Shown one piece after another: positions 12,765 to 45,576 of a stretch of 64,000 nucleotides of DNA. The stretch lies in assembly GCA_045656745.1 (NCBI GenBank), contig JAZORT010000028.1, positions 8,862 to 72,861 of the forward strand, given 5' to 3'. This DNA is from Eubacteriales bacterium (lineage in GTDB: Bacteria; Bacillota; Clostridia; Oscillospirales; CAG-272). The translations under genes and the position numbers were made by a program. Under the pieces are notes generated by a model that was not told the DNA's origin, did not search any database, and worked only from the letters and a program-made list of their open reading frames with translations. Numbering within the stretch: the first letter of the stretch is position 1; the number at the start of each line of letters is the position of its first letter.

Positions 12765-12793
12765 TTGACAATATACCTAATTCGTGATATAAT
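12765..12793 (+). promoter_or_regulatory. perfect consensus sigma-A promoter
   Basis: TTGACA (12765-12770), 17-nt spacer, TATAAT (12788-12793), about 170 nt upstream of the ATG at 12965. Confidence 0.55.
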
Positions 12794-12964
12794 AAATATG
12801 TTGCACAATTTTACACACTAGTTCTATCAATATAGATTTATGTTGATGAAAATGCAAGACTTCCTTATCACATCACTATAAACGTTAAATTGTGTAATAA
12901 CAATGCGAGAAGCCATGTTTTAGTGAGCAGTTTTGACTACACACATTCTTATTGGAGGATACAA

Positions 12965-13369
12965 ATGCAAACAAACGATTTAATTTTCAGCACGCAAAAC
13001 ATCAAGTCAAAGCCTGTGTGGGGAATATGGGTTTTTATAATTGTTTTTCCTATTATGGCGTTTGTCGTTTTTCCTATACTATGGGCATCAATATTAAGCG
13101 GATTTGCAATAGGAATTACTGTTGTCGGTTTCACTAAAATCAAACAGACACAAAAATCTTATGTTGAGTTACACAGTGATAAAATTATCGGCATAGATAT
13201 CAAGGGAGTATCGTTTGAACTTCAATACAACGAAGTTGCTCGATGTGATTTTGCATCGGAAACAGTACGTATTTATTGTAACGGTGGTTATTATGTAGTG
13301 CGCACTCCCAATTGCGAGCAAAAAGTAATTAATATCATTAAACAGCAGAAGGCAATTAATGCTCAGTAA
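12965..13369 (+). CDS. small membrane protein (two TM plus soluble C-terminal domain), unknown function
   Basis: Start placed at MQTNDLIFS, which follows TTGGAGGA. Hydrophobic hairpin: VWGIWVFIIVFPIMAFVVFPILWASILSGFAIGITVVGF. It lies in an A+T-rich block. Confidence 0.6.
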   Translation: MQTNDLIFSTQNIKSKPVWGIWVFIIVFPIMAFVVFPILWASILSGFAIGITVVGFTKIKQTQKSYVELHSDKIIGIDIKGVSFELQYNEVARCDFASETVRIYCNGGYYVVRTPNCEQKVINIIKQQKAINAQ

Positions 13370-27221: not shown

Positions 27222-27257
27222 TTTATAAGCAAAAAAACAACTGCTAATTAATTGTTT

Positions 27258-27318
27258 CAGCCGCCGCACTCAAGTCACGGCGAGCAACGCTCTCTAAAAA
27301 AAGTGCGGCGGCTGTTTT
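27258..27318 (+). terminator. intrinsic terminator (long loop)
   Basis: Stem cagccgccgcact (27258-27270) pairs with agtgcggcggctg (27302-27314), followed by tttt. Confidence 0.55.
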
Positions 27319-27393
27319 AAATTTAAAATTCTTACAAAGCTTAAAAGTTCAAATCAAACAGTTTTAACCACTCATTTTTTGAGGTATAAATTT

Positions 27394-31600: not shown

Positions 31601-34230
31601 TTATCGGAAAAATCGGCTCACAGGACGGAAAAATCACCTTTGACAAGGCCTTCTCCGGTCACTATGCGCAAATCAAGCATATAAAAAACACCGGCGAGGC
31701 TATGGTATTCGGTTCTACGACGTCAAGCGACCCCTATCTGTTCTTCTATGCTGAAGGAAACGAAGACGAAAACGACAAGTCCTTGGTCTTTGAAACCGAC
31801 TTTGCATTTATGTCGGGAACGGCAGAGGGCAGATCAGACAACCTCGTAATGCAGCTTTACGCTTCTAAAACAGAGGGTGTTTCCTACTGGTACGGACTCG
31901 GTCTTTCGATCCAACATATTGACGGAAAATATTATCTATGCGGAACAAATCTTAAGCTTCAATTGCCTGTTGCAACCTGGAATACTATTCGTATAGAGGT
32001 TGATGATACTTCAAAGACAGGCTCAGAAGCAAGAATTTACGTTAACAACACTCTTGTATCAACCTTTAACACTACTTCAAACTCCACCTACGTTCCTAAT
32101 ATGATGATACGCTTTATGTCACAGTGTAAGGACGGTAAAGTATACTTTGACAACACGTATTTCAGAGCTCCCATTGAGCCTCCGCCTCCTACACCCGTAA
32201 ATCCTCCCACAGGAACCGAGAGTGACAATATAAGCAACGGCGTGCTTTATGAAAAAGCTGAGAAATACGAGGGCAGAACCCACGAAGCTCTTATTGCCGA
32301 CGGCATAATGGCGATGAATACCAACAGAGGCACGGGTGATTTAAGAACCCTTTCCTTCTCCGACGGAGCTTTGCACTACAAGTCCAGAGGCTCTTCTTGG
32401 GGCTCGATAAACTTCGTAAGCCAAACTGACGGCACGGGATTTGTATTTGAAACAGATATCAAGCTTTCGGGAGTTGTTGCTTCGAAGGACAGACCTATTC
32501 AGTTTGCGGGAAGCTCCAATAACGGAAGCGGTAACGCATCGGTTTATCCCTTCAACATCTCAATATTCCCCTACTCCGACAAGAACGTTGGCGGTTACCT
32601 TATAACCATAAAGGGTAATACCGAGGATGTTGCCTGGATTCCCGAAGCTACCTGGGTAAACATTCGCTACGAGTTTGATACAACAGGATCCGAAGCAGCT
32701 ACAAGACTTCTTATAAACGGCGTTGCCGTTCTTGAAGCAACGTCTACCGGCGCAATCTCAAATATAACAGGCGTTGAGCTGTTTACCATGTCAACGAGCG
32801 GCGGTGTCGGATTTATTGCAGGCACTATCTCGCTTGACAATACCTGGTGCGGCGTATTGACCGAATCTGCACCAACTCCTCCTTCCGGCGGCGGTGAGGG
32901 CGGAAATACCCCCACAGAGCCTGAAACTCCCGTAGATCCTCCCGTTTCAAGCGATGATTACTACGGCAAGGGCGTATATTACGACAAGGCGATCAATTAC
33001 ACAGGCGCAACTCACGCATCTCTTATTTCCGCAGGCCTTATGGCAGAAAACACACCAAGGGGTCTTGGCGGTAAAACGCTTTCCTTCACTGACGGAGCTA
33101 TGGTTTACGCCGGAGTAAAATCCTCATGGAGTGCTATAAACTTCATAAAGCGCGGCTCGGGCGAAGGTATGGTATTCGAAACCGACATAAAGATCGACGG
33201 AGCCGATATCTCGAAGAACAGAGCCACCCAGTTTGTCGGTACTTCAAACAACGGTACCGGAAACGCGGGACTTTACGCATTCCGTATTTCTATTTATTCA
33301 AACGCTGACGGCGGTTATATCATTGAGATCAAGGACAGCGACAAGCAGATCGCAATTCCCGAGGGCAAGTGGGTAAACATCCGCTATGAGTTTGAGACTC
33401 TTACTCTCGGCTCAAGCGTTAAGCTCTACGTAAACGGCGAGCTTGTTATCGAGACCGTATCAAGCGACTCTATATCCAATATCAAGGGCGTTGAAATGCT
33501 TCATTCGTCCAATAACGGCGCAGATCTCGGCTTCTCAAACGGTACTATCACGCTTGACAATACCTATTGCGGAAGCATCTTTGTCGACCAAGGCTCAAGA
33601 GGCGAGGGCGCATACAAGGACTTGGCTGCGGGCTTTGAAGGCGTGACCTTCGATGATCTTGTAACAAGCGGCGCTATTACGCCCGTCAACGCCTCCTCTG
33701 CCCCTGCTTCTATCGTTGATGTGTCGGGTGACAATGCTGTAAAGGTATCGTCAAGCGGCTCGTCCTGGGCAAGATACAGCATCAAGAAGCAAGGTACTGC
33801 CGCTAATATGGTATTTGAGACCGATATGATGATCGAGGATTACTCAAGCTCGGCTACAAGATACTTCTACATCATGCCTACCTCGAATCTCTCGGCAAAC
33901 GCCTCGCTCTATGCTGCGTATATCGTGCTTATGCCTAATTCCGATGGTGGATACGATATCTACCTTAACGATGCAAGCGAAAGCAAGTATACCGTAACCC
34001 AGGGCAAGTGGTTTAACCTTAGAGTTGAATTTGACGGTCTTAGTATGGGCGACAGATTCTGCATCTACGTAAACGGTGAGCTTCTTGCCGAAGCCACCCT
34101 GCAAAAGTCCATTTCAAACGCTCAGGGACTTCAGCTCCAGCTCCCCGGAAGGAGCGGAGATAACGCAGGCGTTGTAGGTAATATCTACTTCGACAACACC
34201 TATCTCGGCGACAAGAAAACTGAAGAATAA
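28693..34230 (+). CDS. 1845-aa multidomain surface lipoprotein: lipobox, N-terminal domain, alpha/alpha-toroid domain, five beta-sandwich modules
   Basis: MKKSLSLLLAIFVLLLGLSLSSC gives a signal peptide plus lipobox, followed by a low-complexity S/N/D linker. The toroid domain spans about nt 29413-30762. Five modules occupy nt 30784-34212, separated by Pro/Thr-rich linkers (IEPPPPTPVNPPTG, APTPPSGGGEGGNTPTEPETPVDPP). Confidence 0.85.
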   Translation: MKKSLSLLLAIFVLLLGLSLSSCNSKKNDKDKTDDSASNNSTTNPPNSSTDASGAISEGSKITIIYSNEEGSKETANQYSTLLSKIQTALLYGDVYYDAVYGQESSSPVKYEIIVGRSNRSISTTAYKRLSRVEVSKEEETDYLLGYGRWIVYAEGGSIAIAYDDDEHLAAASSAINALIDGYFSGGAISFEDGVLAEGVADYYSVYEKQDQEQLDQQWFRLKELLGEDITAALQNLYGIYSDGMIEWMANLWEPYTCVCTTEECTHSSTYCGGGAFYYSNSGRNTEGFLPDSESTRQILYFLENSGMLKTYKQIPDEMKAGIVRFLKSLQDPESGYFYHPQWGDTISNSRRGRDLGDCTTLLVAFGSAPTYDAPNGTKGDGILADGTPVEQAAPASRLTERLGLSSAVAVSKVVPTAAAIPAHLVDKESFEAYLKGLNIRENSYGAGNELAAQMSEIIQRDKVLKAEGKNYSLVSILINFLNENQNPDTGAWDWPMENDTRGAYHANNGVLKISMVYSNAGVLLPNYTKMVTNAVNTLLDPATPGAVVDVYNVWYTLSMVKGNIESYGGEEAKAHLAAFQEELLANAVTLIDATREKLVIFLKPDGSFSYHPKYSSSNSQSATVAVPQSEEGDVNATTICCTGTISTMFNALGLTKLRPQIYTDVDYMRFIHIIENLDKVIKDEIPPLEIEATGDENKGKGKYYEDSLHFDGRFSDLVNQGLFYSQNDIINLDRLNVGAYVGTTTVNKDKVMAYGKLIGGSPYLYINLMNGKNGNAIVFETDICLIGGSTEYSDGAVLQFWLDDANITNSEMWWNGSFALKQEETILGGEDPIQQYSVSPTMKKHLVTYQTWHNIRLEVQNSGIVGAEIRLYLDNVLINRSYVSTANTSLDHLTLRFRGDSGIDSVVLFDNMFLGSFDSIPADNTELIPDNIEIGTIDENIKNEQIRGTGVYAKDAQTYADVNLTYLSLIGKIGSQDGKITFDKAFSGHYAQIKHIKNTGEAMVFGSTTSSDPYLFFYAEGNEDENDKSLVFETDFAFMSGTAEGRSDNLVMQLYASKTEGVSYWYGLGLSIQHIDGKYYLCGTNLKLQLPVATWNTIRIEVDDTSKTGSEARIYVNNTLVSTFNTTSNSTYVPNMMIRFMSQCKDGKVYFDNTYFRAPIEPPPPTPVNPPTGTESDNISNGVLYEKAEKYEGRTHEALIADGIMAMNTNRGTGDLRTLSFSDGALHYKSRGSSWGSINFVSQTDGTGFVFETDIKLSGVVASKDRPIQFAGSSNNGSGNASVYPFNISIFPYSDKNVGGYLITIKGNTEDVAWIPEATWVNIRYEFDTTGSEAATRLLINGVAVLEATSTGAISNITGVELFTMSTSGGVGFIAGTISLDNTWCGVLTESAPTPPSGGGEGGNTPTEPETPVDPPVSSDDYYGKGVYYDKAINYTGATHASLISAGLMAENTPRGLGGKTLSFTDGAMVYAGVKSSWSAINFIKRGSGEGMVFETDIKIDGADISKNRATQFVGTSNNGTGNAGLYAFRISIYSNADGGYIIEIKDSDKQIAIPEGKWVNIRYEFETLTLGSSVKLYVNGELVIETVSSDSISNIKGVEMLHSSNNGADLGFSNGTITLDNTYCGSIFVDQGSRGEGAYKDLAAGFEGVTFDDLVTSGAITPVNASSAPASIVDVSGDNAVKVSSSGSSWARYSIKKQGTAANMVFETDMMIEDYSSSATRYFYIMPTSNLSANASLYAAYIVLMPNSDGGYDIYLNDASESKYTVTQGKWFNLRVEFDGLSMGDRFCIYVNGELLAEATLQKSISNAQGLQLQLPGRSGDNAGVVGNIYFDNTYLGDKKTEE
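30784..34212 (+). repeat. five tandem copies of a roughly 210-aa beta-sandwich module inside the lipoprotein gene
   Basis: Approximate module boundaries in nt: 30784-31443, 31531-32166, 32221-32856, 32953-33576, 33586-34212. Each holds (V/L)VFETD(I/F/M), W(H/N/V/F)N(I/L)R(L/I/Y/V)E, (L/I)Y(L/V)(D/N)N or (I/V)NG, and a terminal (F/L)DN(M/T)(F/Y/W)(L/F/C)G. Confidence 0.75.
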
Positions 34231-34243
34231 CGAAACAAGAAAA

Positions 34244-34276
34244 CGGCTCCCGTTAAAGAGCGGGAGTCGTTATTTT
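34244..34276 (+). terminator. intrinsic terminator after the lipoprotein gene
   Basis: Stem cggctcccg (34244-34252) pairs with gcgggagtcg (34260-34269) with one mismatch, followed by ttatttt. Confidence 0.5.
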
Positions 34277-34311
34277 AGCAAAACATCTACAAAAAAATCG
34301 GAGAATCCAAA

Positions 34312-41875: not shown

Positions 41876-43525
41876 ATGATTTTTATACATAACTACGCTC
41901 CCAAATATACCGCAAAGCTTATAGAGCTTGGAATAGCGAAAAAGGGCGACGGATTTAAAATTTCTCAACACTATGCAACACCCGAAGAAATGCGTTTTAA
42001 CAACGTTGCAAAAAAAGACGGAGAGCTATATAAAATCGTAAAAAAGCTTGGCTCCTGCTTTTATATAGACCGTCTTCAGGGGGGAACCTTTTATTCGGAA
42101 TACGACTATGACGAGGAATTACTGTCGGAATACGAAAAACTCTGCGATTTTCTCGGTTTTCAGCTTCACGAGCTTGGCACGACCAGAATGCTGGACTGGA
42201 ACAGGATCGACAGACAGTTAAAAGCATTTGGATACGAGAAAACGGAAGAAAATATTATCGAAGCTGTAAGAGCCGTTTCGGCAAACAAGGTCGTTTTGCA
42301 CTTTTCTCAAGGACGCCCTTCGGAATATGCACAAAAAGAGATGCCCAAAACTCTAACGGAAGCATTTGACGATATTAAATCGGTTTTGGAAAATGCTATC
42401 AAGCGCACTAAAAACAGAGTGTTTAACTGCGATGCGGGCACTATGCTTGCGGCGATTGATACAACGCTCAATCTTCCCCTTTCATTTATTGAGGTTGGAT
42501 GTCAAACGAAATTTTCGAGAACGCAATACGCCTTAAGACGAGGTGCATCCCACGCTGTCGGAGCAAAATGGGGCGCATATCTTGAGCCGTGGAGTCACAT
42601 GGCAAACGGTACTACCTGTTATTGCTTTATGCGCGACGGATCAAATGAGTGGAACATTCAAGGCGAGGGATTTGCATATCATCATGACGGCGAAAGAGGA
42701 GGAAGCTCTATGTCGTATGCAAAAAGAATGATGTATTATACCCTGTTCTCGGGAGCGGACTATTTCTCAGAGGAATGGGGACAGTCCAACACCTTCTACG
42801 ACTTTGAAAGCTTTGAATTATCCCCTTACGGAAGGATAAAAAAAGAATTCTGCGACTTTGCAACAGACTTTAAAAACGTAAAAGCCTATGCGCCCATCGC
42901 AATCGTTATCCCAAGAGAATACGGTGTTTTAAACACACACACGAGAGTTTTCCCCTACGAAACCATCATCGATGATACGAAGACGAAAAGAAGGATGGAA
43001 ACCGCAGAAAGACTTGCGTCCTTTATTTACAACAAAGCAAATCTCGGAAGCGAGGACGAATATTTTTCAAACGGCGTACTACCCAGCATTTTTGATGTTA
43101 TTTTCGAGGATTCCTACGAAAAGATCCCCGAGAGCTACGAGCTTATAATTGATCTTTCGGGAATGATACAAAAATCCGACCGAACGATTGACGGTTGGAG
43201 TGACGAAGTATTTGACAAAATCAAAGAATTTAAAGAGAAAAAAATGCCTGTTGAAATCTCAGCAACGGCCGATCTCGATTACACAATTTTTACAAACAAC
43301 GAGAAAAAATACGCGGCAGTATTTAACCACGCAGGCGTTTCAAAAACCGTTGAACATGGCGAATCTACAAATCCCGAGGCATGTGTCTTCTTAAGTGCGA
43401 ATGCAAAGAATGGCAAGATCACGAAGCTTTACAATCTCTCAAATTCCGATTGTTCACTTGAAAATGGCAAACTTTCCGGATCGCTGCAAGGCGGTGAATT
43501 TATCCTCTTTGAATACGAAGAATAA
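41876..43525 (+). CDS. hypothetical 549-aa cytoplasmic protein, translationally coupled to the FAD oxidoreductase
   Basis: ATG at 41876 lies 1 nt after the upstream TGA (ctgATATGatt). No signal peptide or TM segment, and I recognise no family motif. Confidence 0.65.
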   Translation: MIFIHNYAPKYTAKLIELGIAKKGDGFKISQHYATPEEMRFNNVAKKDGELYKIVKKLGSCFYIDRLQGGTFYSEYDYDEELLSEYEKLCDFLGFQLHELGTTRMLDWNRIDRQLKAFGYEKTEENIIEAVRAVSANKVVLHFSQGRPSEYAQKEMPKTLTEAFDDIKSVLENAIKRTKNRVFNCDAGTMLAAIDTTLNLPLSFIEVGCQTKFSRTQYALRRGASHAVGAKWGAYLEPWSHMANGTTCYCFMRDGSNEWNIQGEGFAYHHDGERGGSSMSYAKRMMYYTLFSGADYFSEEWGQSNTFYDFESFELSPYGRIKKEFCDFATDFKNVKAYAPIAIVIPREYGVLNTHTRVFPYETIIDDTKTKRRMETAERLASFIYNKANLGSEDEYFSNGVLPSIFDVIFEDSYEKIPESYELIIDLSGMIQKSDRTIDGWSDEVFDKIKEFKEKKMPVEISATADLDYTIFTNNEKKYAAVFNHAGVSKTVEHGESTNPEACVFLSANAKNGKITKLYNLSNSDCSLENGKLSGSLQGGEFILFEYEE

Positions 43526-43547
43526 AGCGATAGTAAATTCTTTCATT

Positions 43548-43586
43548 AAAAAAAGGAGTACGAAACCTAGTTCGTACTCCTTTTTT
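43548..43586 (+). terminator. intrinsic terminator
   Basis: Stem ggagtacgaa (43555-43564) pairs with ttcgtactcc (43571-43580), followed by tttttt. An A run precedes the hairpin. Confidence 0.7.
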
Positions 43587-43618
43587 AGTCTTTGTGCATA
43601 ACAAAAAATCCCACACTC

Positions 43619-43692
43619 TGTGCGTGAGGTGGTCGATCCACGGCTTCGCCAAAACAAAAGGATGCCACAAGGGCATCTTTTATACGGGTGGG
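43619..43692. repeat. copy 1 of a duplicated roughly 65-75-nt element (hairpins, terminator, short tRNA-Val 3' fragment)
   Basis: tgtgcgtgaggtggtcgatccacggcttcgccaaaacaaaaggatgccacaagggcatctttt, followed by atacgggtggg. It is nearly identical to 43786-43871. Confidence 0.7.
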
Positions 43693-43785
43693 TTTTGCCG
43701 CTTTGCGTCAATATTTCTGCGTTCACCGCTGAAAAGCAAGCTTTTCGACGGTTTTACTTGAAATGCGAACCACATTCACGCACTT

Positions 43786-43871
43786 TGTGCGTGAGGTGGT
43801 CGATCCACGGCTTCGCCAAAAACAAAAGGATGCCACAAGGGCATCCTTTTGTTTTGGTGGAAACGGGTGGG
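43786..43871. repeat. copy 2 of the duplicated element, abutting and overlapping the 3' end of tRNA-Val
   Basis: tgtgcgtgaggtggtcgatccacggcttcgccaaaaacaaaaggatgccacaagggcatcctttt, followed by gttttggtggaaacgggtggg. The hairpin ggatgcc/ggcatcc with flanking A and T runs serves as the tRNA terminator. Confidence 0.7.
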
Positions 43872-43931
43872 CTCGAACCACTGACCCCCTGCATGTCAAG
43901 CAGGTACTCTGACCAACTGAGCTACGCTTCC
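43855..43931 (-). tRNA. tRNA-Val (anticodon GAC), CCA encoded
   Basis: Hand-folded cloverleaf: acceptor GGAAGCG/CGTTTCC; D arm GCTC-AGTTGGTCA-GAGT; anticodon arm CCTGC-TTGACAT-GCAGG; variable GGGTC; T arm AGTGG-TTCGAGC-CCACC; then A-CCA. Confidence 0.85.
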
Positions 43932-43947
43932 GAATATTAACGCAAGT

Positions 43948-43976
43948 ATGATACCACATAGCGGAGAAAAAGTCAA
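43948..43976 (-). promoter_or_regulatory. promoter of tRNA-Val
   Basis: On the reverse strand: TTGACT, 17-nt spacer ending in TGg, then TATCAT, about 17 nt upstream of the mature 5' end. Confidence 0.5.
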
Positions 43977-44036
43977 TAGATTTTTTAAAAAGTTTGTTTC
44001 TCTGTTTATACTTGATATGCTTTTTGTTTTTTTCTC

Positions 44037-44065
44037 TTGATATTTTCTTTATTTTGTGCTATAAT
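44037..44065 (+). promoter_or_regulatory. strong extended -10 promoter
   Basis: TTGATA (44037-44042), 17-nt spacer ending in TGc, then TATAAT (44060-44065). Confidence 0.55.
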
Positions 44066-44071
44066 TGAAGT

Positions 44072-44295
44072 GCCAAACGAATCGAATATTTTTATTAAGG
44101 GTATTTTTTATTTATGGGGATATTATACCTTTTTTCGCTGTACACTATCGTTGTGGATTTAGCAAAAATGTAAACTCCAAGCGTTAGTGTACGGCTAGAT
44201 TTCATATCCCTATTCTAATTCTTCGATTTGTTTGGCGACAATCGGAGTTTGCGTTTTTCGGTGCGGTGACTTCGGTTGCCGCACTTTTTGTTTTT
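44072..44295 (+). promoter_or_regulatory. structured 5' leader with a long-range closing helix and an intrinsic terminator (candidate riboswitch/attenuator, class unknown)
   Basis: gccaaacgaatcgaa (44072-44086) pairs with ttcgatttgtttggc (44222-44236), 14 of 15 positions. An inner helix pairs gtacacta with tagtgtac. The terminator at 44261-44295 lies 25 nt before the ATG. Confidence 0.4.
44261..44295 (+). terminator. leader terminator with a UUCG tetraloop
   Basis: Stem gtgcggtgac pairs with gttgccgcac (10 bp including two G-U pairs), loop ttcg, followed by tttttgttttt. It sits between the promoter and the RBS GGAGGAATGAAAATG. Confidence 0.6.
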
Positions 44296-44320
44296 ATCGA
44301 AAACGAATGGAGGAATGAAA

Positions 44321-45271
44321 ATGGAAGAACAGAACAATCAGAATTTTGAAAAACAAGAAACCGATGAGAACAAAGCTAGCGAGTCGGGCAAACAAAAAAA
44401 GCCGTTATCGCGTAAAACGAAAATGGCTATTATCATTGGTGCCGCAGTAGCAGTCATTGCAATAGTAATAGCAATAATAATTGCATTTCTCGGAAATGGC
44501 AATCGCGAGCATACTCATAACTGGCGTTACAACACAACAAAAGACAGAACATGTACGGAAAACGGAATTATGATAAAGAAATGTGACGTTTGCGGAGAAA
44601 CTACAGCCATTGATCTTTTAGCCGAACATTCTTACGGAGACTATCAACGTATTCAAGCAAACTGTATAATGGAAGGAAAGCAAGCCCGTTTTTGTAAGGT
44701 ATGCGGTCACGAAGATTCGTACGCTATTTCCGCGCGCGACTCACATTCATTTTGGAGTGATTGGACTATAGTAGAAGAAGCCGACTGCTTAACCGAGGGT
44801 AAAAGAGAGCGCAAATGTTATTATTGCGATGAATATGAACGGGAAATCATTCCTGCGCAACATAAATATTTAAACGGAACATGTACCGTATGCAATCGCG
44901 GATTGTTAAATTTTGTACTCCCCGATGCACCTATAATCGTACACGATTTCATCTCTAACGATTTAATTGATGAAACGTGTAAAATAACATCAATAGAACT
45001 TAAAGAAATTGAATACCGCAACGGAAAATACACAATAACATTCGTTTGGTCCGGTGAAAAAACATATGACAATAATGGCGATAACTATTCTTCCTCGGTT
45101 GGATTTGCTTATAAGATATACGATTCCGAGGGGTTTGTCGTATATTCTTCACAAACAATGTCGGTCGCAGTTAAGGTTGGTGAAAAGTTCCGCAACGAGG
45201 AGTTTACTACTGTCAGTCTAGACATTGACCCCGACGAACAATATACGATGGAAATTTTGAATTTGGACTAA
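44321..45271 (+). CDS. membrane-anchored protein with Cys-rich (zinc-ribbon-like) repeats and a C-terminal beta-rich domain
   Basis: Start at MEEQNNQ, which follows GGAGGA. TM segment MAIIIGAAVAVIAIVIAIIIAFL. It has 3-4 repeats of H-x(1-3)-(W/Y)-x(6-9)-C-x3-G-x5-C-x2-C. Confidence 0.7.
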   Translation: MEEQNNQNFEKQETDENKASESGKQKKPLSRKTKMAIIIGAAVAVIAIVIAIIIAFLGNGNREHTHNWRYNTTKDRTCTENGIMIKKCDVCGETTAIDLLAEHSYGDYQRIQANCIMEGKQARFCKVCGHEDSYAISARDSHSFWSDWTIVEEADCLTEGKRERKCYYCDEYEREIIPAQHKYLNGTCTVCNRGLLNFVLPDAPIIVHDFISNDLIDETCKITSIELKEIEYRNGKYTITFVWSGEKTYDNNGDNYSSSVGFAYKIYDSEGFVVYSSQTMSVAVKVGEKFRNEEFTTVSLDIDPDEQYTMEILNLD

Positions 45272-45576
45272 CGTATAATTCCTTTCAACTCAATTTAATA
45301 CTTTCCAAATTAATTACAAACAGTCAGCGAGCCGTTTGTTGAACCGAAACAGCAAGAACGGACGTTGAATTAAAAAGCTCTCGTAGTATTTTGAAAGCTG
45401 CTTCTTTTTCAGGAGCAGCTTTTTCGTTTTTTCGGATCAATATATATTGCAAAGAATTTGAAAATGTGTTAGGTTGTTATTAGTTAAATAATTTTTATAA
45501 GGCAACGGTAAATATGATATTCGCCCCTGAAGTTTAACACTTTAGGGGCGAATGTTTTTTCATAAATATCGATCGT

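Follow-up and report, generated by a model that had tools for sequence, protein, structure and literature searches.

Why would an intrinsic terminator stand between a promoter and the gene that this promoter serves? The question is posed by the leader of a gene for a 316-amino-acid protein in a 64,000-nucleotide stretch of Eubacteriales contig JAZORT010000028.1 (hereafter the window, meaning the whole stretch). An original prediction, made from the letters alone, had proposed a structured leader with the layout of a transcription attenuator; comparison of related sequences now supports such a layout through conserved helices and two alternative pairings, termed X:Y and AT below. The leader belongs to a family that is widespread in gut and rumen Clostridia, in metagenome-assembled genomes (MAGs) of Oscillospirales type, and apparently undescribed so far. 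It probably switches the genes behind it on and off through its built-in terminator. Specifically, we assign a probability of about 0.55 to the reading that the window leader is a family member which would control a surface-protein gene by attenuating its transcription through three helices that exclude one another.

The leader and its family

The predicted layout is that of a classical attenuator, with an anti-antiterminator (X:Y), an antiterminator (AT) and a terminator (T), and comprises the following parts.

44037-44042 (+), -35 hexamer TTGATA; promoter scan, 11 of 12 consensus positions, 17-nt spacer
44057-44065 (+), extended -10 box TGcTATAAT; promoter scan, with the TG extension
44071-44086 (+), P1 5′ strand, UGCCAAACGAAUCGAA, at the extreme 5′ end of the predicted transcript
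44116-44129 (+), side hairpin P2a, GGGGAUAUUAUACC, with a U-run after it; hallmark of the large size class
44140-44147 (+), P3 5′ strand, GUACACUA; partner 44185-44192 in the minimum-free-energy (MFE) structure
44162-44178 (+), X, the conserved apical element G-c-AAAAAUGUAAACUCC; partner of Y and proposed anti-antiterminator strand
44185-44192 (+), P3 3′ strand, UAGUGUAC; sequence and MFE structure
44222-44237 (+), P1 3′ strand, UUCGAUUUGUUUGGCG; partner of 44071-44086, its inner part alternatively pairing with the tail (H-alt)
44224-44231 with 44238-44244 (+), alternative helix H-alt, loop UUGGCG; pair counts
44238-44259 (+), switching sequence, the tail ACAAUC plus Y, GGAGUUUGCGUUUUUC; three possible partners
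44244-44259 (+), Y; pairs with X and lies directly 5′ of the terminator
44241-44276 (+), antiterminator hairpin AT, AUCGGAGUU..CGU with GCG..GACUUCGGU; MFE of the nascent transcript, pair counts
44260-44270/44275-44285 (+), intrinsic terminator T, 11-bp stem with a UUCG loop; terminator scan
44285-44295 (+), U-tract of T, TTTTTGTTTTT; terminator scan
44296-44304 (+), AUCGAAAAC, a poorly matching version of Z (CACCGAAAAA, an element of a subfamily), with complementarity to UUUUUCGG 5′ of T
44309-44313 and 44321 (+), Shine-Dalgarno (SD) sequence GGAGG and start codon ATG; sequence
44321-45271 (+), downstream gene; 316-amino-acid protein with an N-terminal transmembrane (TM) helix, four Cys-rich repeats and a C-terminal domain

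Most of what had been read by eye stands. The promoter TTGATA-17-TGcTATAAT, with a start near 44072, is present as described and is a strong one of sigma-A type, and we place the predicted start at about 44071-44072. The pairing claimed between the first 15 nt of the transcript and 44222-44236 is there (gccaaacgaatcgaa, 44072-44086, is complementary to ttcgatttgtttggc, 44222-44236) and extends through U44071:G44237 to a helix of 16 bp with one G:U, closing a domain of 135 nt. An inner 8-bp helix is real, although it joins 44140-44147 to 44185-44192 and not, as had been given, 44145-44152 to 44187-44194, a displacement of 2-5 nt. The UUCG-loop terminator ahead of the SD sequence and ATG was likewise seen, the terminator scan giving it an 11-bp stem within 44260-44285; ATG 44321 lies 26 nt past the U-tract.

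The switching sequence can pair with X, with the 5′ arm and loop of T (forming AT) or, via ACAAUC, with the P1 3′ strand (forming H-alt). In the proposed OFF state, X would capture Y, AT would be blocked and T would fold, so that transcription would stop at about 44290 and yield a terminated RNA of about 220 nt. H-alt competes with P1 and would go with this state, in which H-alt, X:Y and T would be adjacent helices. In the ON state, a closed rod would hold X at its tip, at a distance from Y, which would then pair with the emerging 5′ half of T; this AT pairing would delay folding of the terminator and allow read-through into the gene.

Comparisons with known systems, here and below, draw on general knowledge. 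In the terminator/antiterminator leaders of Firmicutes (S-box/SAM-I, T-box and trp-type), one segment likewise has two possible partners, a strand further upstream that is linked to the sensor and the 5′ arm of T; the terminator likewise lies between promoter and SD sequence, and multiple copies per genome make up a regulon. Unlike these, the present leader has no Rfam match and lacks a specifier, a T-box sequence and a leader peptide, and its putative sensor is a long, variable rod that begins at +1 and carries the anti-antiterminator strand in an apical loop, some 75 nt away from the partner strand. Interior indels of all lengths and the lack of a conserved start codon led us to reject a leader-peptide mechanism.

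Recognisable leaders occur upstream of homologues of the window protein with only 37-51% protein identity. They share GCCAAAC at TATAAT + 6 nt, a variable long hairpin and a 3′ block, GTTTGGCGACAATYGGAGTnnGCGTTTTTCGGTGCG-hairpin-TTTTT; orthologues of the window gene in loci L001, L004 and L014 carry the same leader. Scanning species-representative genomes with a degenerate pattern taken from the 3′ block returned at least 119 stretches, about 75 of them true members, and scanning human-gut, rumen and other metagenomes with a different anchor, a 20-mer from the tail, returned at least 120. Over both scans we counted at least 157 distinct homologous elements. The MAG labels of the genome-scan members read Oscillospiraceae, Ruminococcus, Acutalibacteraceae, Dysosmobacter, Faecousia, Eubacteriales and Clostridia. 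Among the matches listed, several genomes hold 2-4 copies, and copies inside one genome are strongly diverged. A phage association was rejected, with just 3 matches in a viral collection. Finally, a covariance model (R1) spanning X, the P1 3′ strand, tail, Y and T, built from 53 metagenome sequences with the window excluded, found the window leader at 44154-44292 over its full length (model positions 1-130; 108.5 bits, E = 1.3e-22).

The original prediction recognised no known riboswitch core, and Rfam 15 agrees for both the window and 18 other family members. tRNA-Val alone reaches threshold in the window, the best sub-threshold match within 43400-44500 is sbrA (23.8 bits against a threshold of 45), and the 18 other members give no match at the motif. 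The leader stays below the gathering thresholds of the T-box, SAM, TPP, FMN, cobalamin, purine, glycine, ZTP, fluoride, c-di-GMP/AMP, Mn, guanidine, 6S, raiA and other curated families. We found no description of the leader family in a literature search that included motif-discovery surveys, among them 200 of the 408 supplementary files of PMC8040213.

Competing pairings of the switching sequence

If the leader is an attenuator, its helices should persist in orthologous leaders, as the original prediction had it. They do so with covariation, P1 being 92-96% and the terminator 97-99% paired. We counted pairs in two alignments, one of 40 genome sequences (A1) and one of 63 metagenome sequences (A4), the latter ascertained on the tail motif and unbiased for X, most of Y and T. 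The helix between X and Y was found by RNAalifold, which on the large size class chose a 16-bp long-range helix of X with Y (GGAGnnnGCGUUUUUC) over P1. In A1, 95.3% of its pair cells are paired and 7 pairs are compensatory; in A4 the figures are 92.2% and 6. The corresponding values for P1 are 91.6% with 8 and 95.9% with 5; T is 99.3% paired in A1 and 97.0% paired, with 6 compensatory pairs, in A4. In A1, none of 500 shuffles matched the observed values for P1, X:Y or T, and sliding the partners dropped pairing to 41-50%. G:U pairs are frequent on the + strand in both alignments and numerous on that strand only, which argues for pairing of RNA rather than of DNA. The pair at the X:Y/T junction covaries in A4 (GC 48, CG 6, AU 2, UA 1). 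We rejected an extension of X:Y into the terminator stem, by which X would act as a direct antiterminator: the bases after U5 vary (CGG, CAG, GAG, UG) and the junction pair alone covaries.

The antiterminator competes for the same strand. Tail and Y are complementary to the 5′ arm and loop of T, GGAGUY pairing with RACUUC and GCGU with GCGC. AT was counted first in a 7-bp version and then in a 12-bp one. The longer form has 4 compensatory pairs in either alignment, and its pairing reaches 95.6% (A1) and 95.9% (A4), as against 27-56% in slid controls. Base identity just after GGAG correlates with base identity just ahead of CUUC (Fisher p = 0.0013, without phylogenetic correction). AT is also the MFE structure predicted for the window's nascent transcript if it ends ahead of the 3′ arm of T (-58.0 to -70.0 kcal/mol). 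With compensatory changes in both X:Y and AT, the alternative pairings that an attenuator requires are supplied.

H-alt, the third competitor, joins UUGU of the inner P1 3′ strand to ACAA of the tail. The short version first drawn on A1 gave merely 70-82% pairing and weak covariation. Re-anchored across P1 types (alignment A6), it takes the forms UUAU/AUAA, CUGA/UCAG, AUGU/ACAU and CUGU/ACAG and reaches 86.5% pairing with 4 compensatory pairs, a value attained in 0 of 500 shuffles. A P2 pairing and a local apical hairpin, as first drawn on A1, also gave 70-82% pairing with weak covariation, and these were dropped.

Promoter and 5′ helix travel together in the family. The -35 boxes of members are TTTACA/TTGACA-like, an extended -10 box lies a few nucleotides upstream of the P1 5′ strand in nearly all members, and a TAnnnT -10-like hexamer occurs at most 18 nt upstream of that strand in 66 of 67; a spacing of 6 nt between the -10 box and the G of GCC is the commonest. 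P1 measures 12-25 bp, starts in essentially every member at the predicted +1/+2 and covaries between GCCAAAC/GUUUGGC, GCGACAC/GUGUCGC, GCUACAC/GUGUAGC, GCCACAC/GUGUGGC and ACCACAC/GUGUGGU.

The domain that P1 closes comes in two sizes, a small class of 92-125 nt and a large class of 146-172 nt. The large class carries an extra hairpin, GGGnUAUUAUACCC, followed by a U-run; this hairpin, P2a, is missing from the small class (alignment A2), and the block GGGGnUAUUAUACCCUUUUU around it is conserved in A1 and A4. Helices equivalent to P3 with other sequences are visible by eye in A2. The core common to both classes amounts to little beyond P1, AAUA and X. Across 110 members the domain is predicted to fold as an irregular rod (median 57 bp in the MFE structure) in which the conserved A-run of X lies inside 88% of the base pairs; in 85 of the 110 MFE structures this run is left unpaired at the rod tip. 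The consensus of X is GGUAAAAAYGCAnnCUCC and that of the switching sequence ACAAUYGGAGnnnGCGUUUUUC.

Some leaders provide a natural deletion of X. Short leaders that retain tail, Y and T and lack P1 and X precede homologous genes at L003/L007, L010/L012, L045 (7460-7560), L070, L103 and L130. Their tail and T-apex sequences differ and remain complementary (GAAGU/ACUUC, GAGG/CCUC, GGAGU/ACUCC, AGCCG/CGGCU), and AT, not T, is the overall MFE structure in 4 of 6. With X absent, Y would be free, AT would win and the terminator would be bypassed, as the attenuator model predicts; control would pass to a repressor at the promoter. A divergent gene with an XRE-type helix-turn-helix (XRE/HTH_3) lies upstream of L003, L007 and L010, the X-less leaders with gene calls that were checked, and a palindrome follows the -10 box in L010, L045 and L130.

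Folding energies of the window leader are as follows. RNAfold gives -86.6 kcal/mol for 44072-44330, compared with -56.7 +/- 4.3 for 200 dinucleotide shuffles (z = -7.0). In isolation, P1 contributes -22.6, X:Y -19.2, T -17.6, AT -12.0, P3 with the apical hairpin -23.3 and H-alt -5.4 kcal/mol.

Several points weigh against attenuation by exclusive helices. In the nearest-neighbour model of the window, the closed rod (-77.3 kcal/mol) is strongly favoured over a nested fold with X:Y enforced (-60.5 kcal/mol), and X:Y and P1 could coexist as a pseudoknot instead of alternating. With several G:U pairs and a lower stability than T, AT would act only kinetically. The invariance of some sequences is partly forced by the search patterns (TTTTTCGGTGCG in A1 and A2, the tail 20-mer in A4), and the shuffle controls ignore phylogeny. 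Moreover, 16 of the 157 elements (about 10%) have no open reading frame (ORF) behind them, some lying in tandem with their own promoter and terminator, which fits a small RNA (sRNA) gene equally well.

The energetic objection carries a hint of its own. Because the rod tip lies about 49 bp from the base and Y starts 7 nt after the base, X:Y would need the rod to open or to fold back; with the closed rod favoured, its formation seems to require a helper or a folded-back three-dimensional architecture, which hints at a factor. As X is conserved in sequence and the rest of the domain is variable, a protein or other macromolecular or kinetic input is favoured over a metabolite, and we lean towards such an input as the somewhat likelier signal.

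Downstream genes and the readings of the leader

An SD sequence and an ORF of at least 50 amino acids follow 141 of the 157 elements at a median distance of 29 nt (middle half, 21-41 nt). An N-terminal hydrophobic stretch is present in 92 of the 141 products and a lipobox-like motif in 42. Among 60 products compared with Pfam we found BspA-type LRR_5 (14), LRR_8 (13), zinc ribbon (4), C-type lectin (3), Listeria-Bacteroides repeat (3), SLH (2) and dockerin (2) matches. The downstream set makes up a putative surface-protein regulon, mostly of lipoproteins and BspA-type leucine-rich-repeat (LRR) proteins, and not a metal or thiol regulon. Metals and thiols had been suggested as ligands; this idea rested solely on the Cys-rich repeats of one product and is not supported, because the downstream products form a set of varied surface and membrane proteins (LRR_5, lectin, SLH, Zn-ribbon) with no metal or redox regulon among them.

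The attenuation reading can be taken further, to an RNA sensor of a new class, which could be a riboswitch or the target of a dedicated RNA-binding regulator and would co-ordinately gate a regulon of variable surface proteins in gut and rumen Oscillospirales that are abundant and for the most part uncultured. We hold this tentatively, at odds well short of even, and the same goes for the membership of such a regulon (BspA-type LRR proteins, lipoproteins, lectin, SLH and dockerin proteins). Its architecture would be a sensor rod built from +1 with the anti-antiterminator in its apical loop, and opening of the 5′-terminal helix may couple termination to RNA decay. If true, one conserved RNA module governs many surface-exposed proteins in some of the most common and least tractable gut bacteria of humans and animals, these proteins being the molecules that meet host, phage and diet. 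The family would offer a searchable motif for the regulon with clear mutational predictions, a new orphan RNA class in which to hunt for input signals and, as a natural three-helix attenuator with an unusual 5′-terminal sensor, a possible genetic part.

The strongest rival keeps the platform of X:Y, AT and T and makes the rod an aptamer for a small molecule or ion, which would tune P1 or the rod and hence the availability of X. A P1 3′ strand with an alternative partner (H-alt), followed by antiterminator and terminator, is a typical riboswitch layout; there are several copies per genome before functionally related genes, and positions outside helices are conserved (AAUA after P1, and GGGnUAUUAUACCCUUUU in P2a). 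Absence of an Rfam match would make it a new class. We nevertheless think a metabolite riboswitch unlikely, given the two size classes, the widely varying helix lengths and sequences, the few conserved unpaired positions and a shared core of scarcely more than P1, AAUA and X; the surface-protein genes have no common metabolic theme that would point to a ligand. ZTP (pfl) and other pseudoknot riboswitches likewise use a long-range pairing, in which a distal subdomain pairs with a strand abutting the terminator and decides termination. The long-range helix of the present leader differs in being 16 bp long, largely conserved in sequence and without overlap with the terminator stem; it would act indirectly, by hiding the antiterminator strand, and the leader has no ZTP core, as judged by the lack of an Rfam match.

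Alternatively, the terminated transcript of about 220 nt could itself be the product, a stand-alone or dual-function sRNA, with the gene expressed through leaky read-through only. Each unit has a strong promoter and a strong terminator, both transcript ends are base-paired, and a U-run directly precedes the terminator hairpin with its poly-U tail. Such a U-rich stretch with terminator hairpin and U-tail resembles the Hfq-binding module of enterobacterial sRNAs. Tandem ORF-free units (L208, L047, L049) and the 16 of 157 elements without an ORF speak for the same view. We rate it as quite improbable because 90% of the elements are tightly spaced from an SD sequence and start codon on the same strand, leaving no space for a second promoter, because the compensatory changes in AT would be purposeless in a pure sRNA gene, and because no conserved single-stranded seed region is evident.

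Little weight falls on a third rival, a constitutive module of the 5′ untranslated region (UTR) in which the +1 helix blocks 5′-end-dependent decay, or P1 and X:Y serve as RNase III sites, with no switching. As such a role would have it, P1 is a helix of 12-25 bp whose start coincides with the predicted +1/+2 in essentially every member. 5′-terminal stem-loops stabilise Gram-positive mRNAs (aprE and ermC leaders) and are common in the UTRs of S-layer and surface-protein mRNAs. The stabilisers of the Bacillus subtilis aprE and ermC leaders and the Escherichia coli ompA 5′ UTR likewise form a helix with the first nucleotides of the transcript. Those hairpins, however, are short and have neither a terminator downstream nor alternative pairings, whereas the present helix closes a domain of about 150 nt and has a competing partner in H-alt. 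A strong intrinsic terminator between stabiliser and gene would be counter-productive, and a passive stabiliser needs no three exclusive covarying pairings (X:Y, AT, H-alt). Even if constitutive, the family would annotate hundreds of blank intergenic regions.

Weakest is a DNA-level element, either recombination sites of an invertible switch of the Clostridioides difficile cwpV type or terminal repeats of a miniature mobile element, which we dismiss: the multi-copy occurrence and a cwpV-like layout (inverted repeats around about 135 bp between promoter and surface-protein gene, terminator in the leader) would suit it, but at many positions of the repeats the + strand has G:U or U:G, hence A:C mismatches in DNA and on the other strand, the whole interior is a long, near-palindromic hairpin that inversion would change little, X was recognised in forward orientation in 55 of 71 metagenome instances, with no inverted allele among the 71, and stands in the same position in the A4 rows, and the copies within a genome are diverged while their position and orientation relative to the ORF are constant. 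The cwpV switch and the c-di-GMP-I/II riboswitches of C. difficile act, as is proposed for the present leader, by premature termination in a long 5′ leader of surface-protein or adhesin genes; the present leader carries no signature of DNA inversion and no GEMM or c-di-GMP-II match, occurs in Oscillospirales-type MAGs and includes its own conserved promoter.

Variants, neighbouring genes and further observations

The window protein matches no Pfam family above threshold. It has 28 homologues, none of them annotated, and an exact-protein look-up for the window ORF and for P0001 returned no record. Many products encoded behind other elements carry its Cys-rich repeat (H-x-[YFW]-G-[ED]-W ... C-T-E-x-G ... 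C-x-C-G-E) at the N-terminus, often just past a lipobox; besides the window gene (44321-45271), carriers are the ORFs of L026, L030, L034, L065, L068, L070, L087, L109, L119 and L120, and no Pfam model matches the repeat. A 78-amino-acid DUF1413 gene follows the orthologue in L003, L004, L007 and L012, in place of which the window has a terminator at 45393-45423.

A subfamily element, Z ((CA)CCGAAAAA), lies a few nucleotides after the U-tract and is complementary to UUUUUCGG(UG); it occurs in the window (44296-44304), in L001, L004 and L014 and at many genome loci. Z is present in 6 of 6 leaders found through protein homology but in only 17 of 98 in the unbiased metagenome set. As a core feature, CCGAAAAA after the U-tract pairing with UUUUUCGG was therefore rejected, its presence having been forced by the genome search pattern. 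Where present, Z could clamp the terminator region in the read-through mRNA.

Complete units of promoter, RNA and terminator also stand in tandem, at intervals of about 215 nt and without intervening ORFs, at L208:14040-14696 (- strand), L047:4100-4530 and L049:1200-1710. The L208 array has three units. A gene follows the last tandem unit only, in L208 encoding a 154-amino-acid unannotated protein; similar SLOG-type products occur in L024 and L122. On a 1,353-nt metagenome contig (L192:239-513), tail, Y and terminator point outward on both sides of one rod, a palindromic arrangement that may be an assembly fold-back at a long hairpin.

The window holds a second, degenerate family member at 12766-12965 (+), upstream of an ORF (12966-13369) for a 134-amino-acid protein with two TM helices. 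Its promoter is TTGACA-17-TGATATAAT, its P1 strands are TTGCACAATTT and AAATTGTGTAA, and it has an X-like segment, GAAAATGCAAGACTTCC; Y and T are decayed, without a U-tract. It scores E = 7.8e-4 with nhmmer and 12.2 bits (E = 0.75) with the covariance model. Other covariance-model matches in the window (27227-27325, 34213-34286 and others) are weak, with E of at least 0.05, and look like unrelated hairpins. Closer to the leader, two direct repeats of about 73 nt (43609-43681 and 43776-43849) are 90-97% identical, each with a terminator-like hairpin, and sit just downstream of tRNA-Val(gac) (43855-43931, minus strand).

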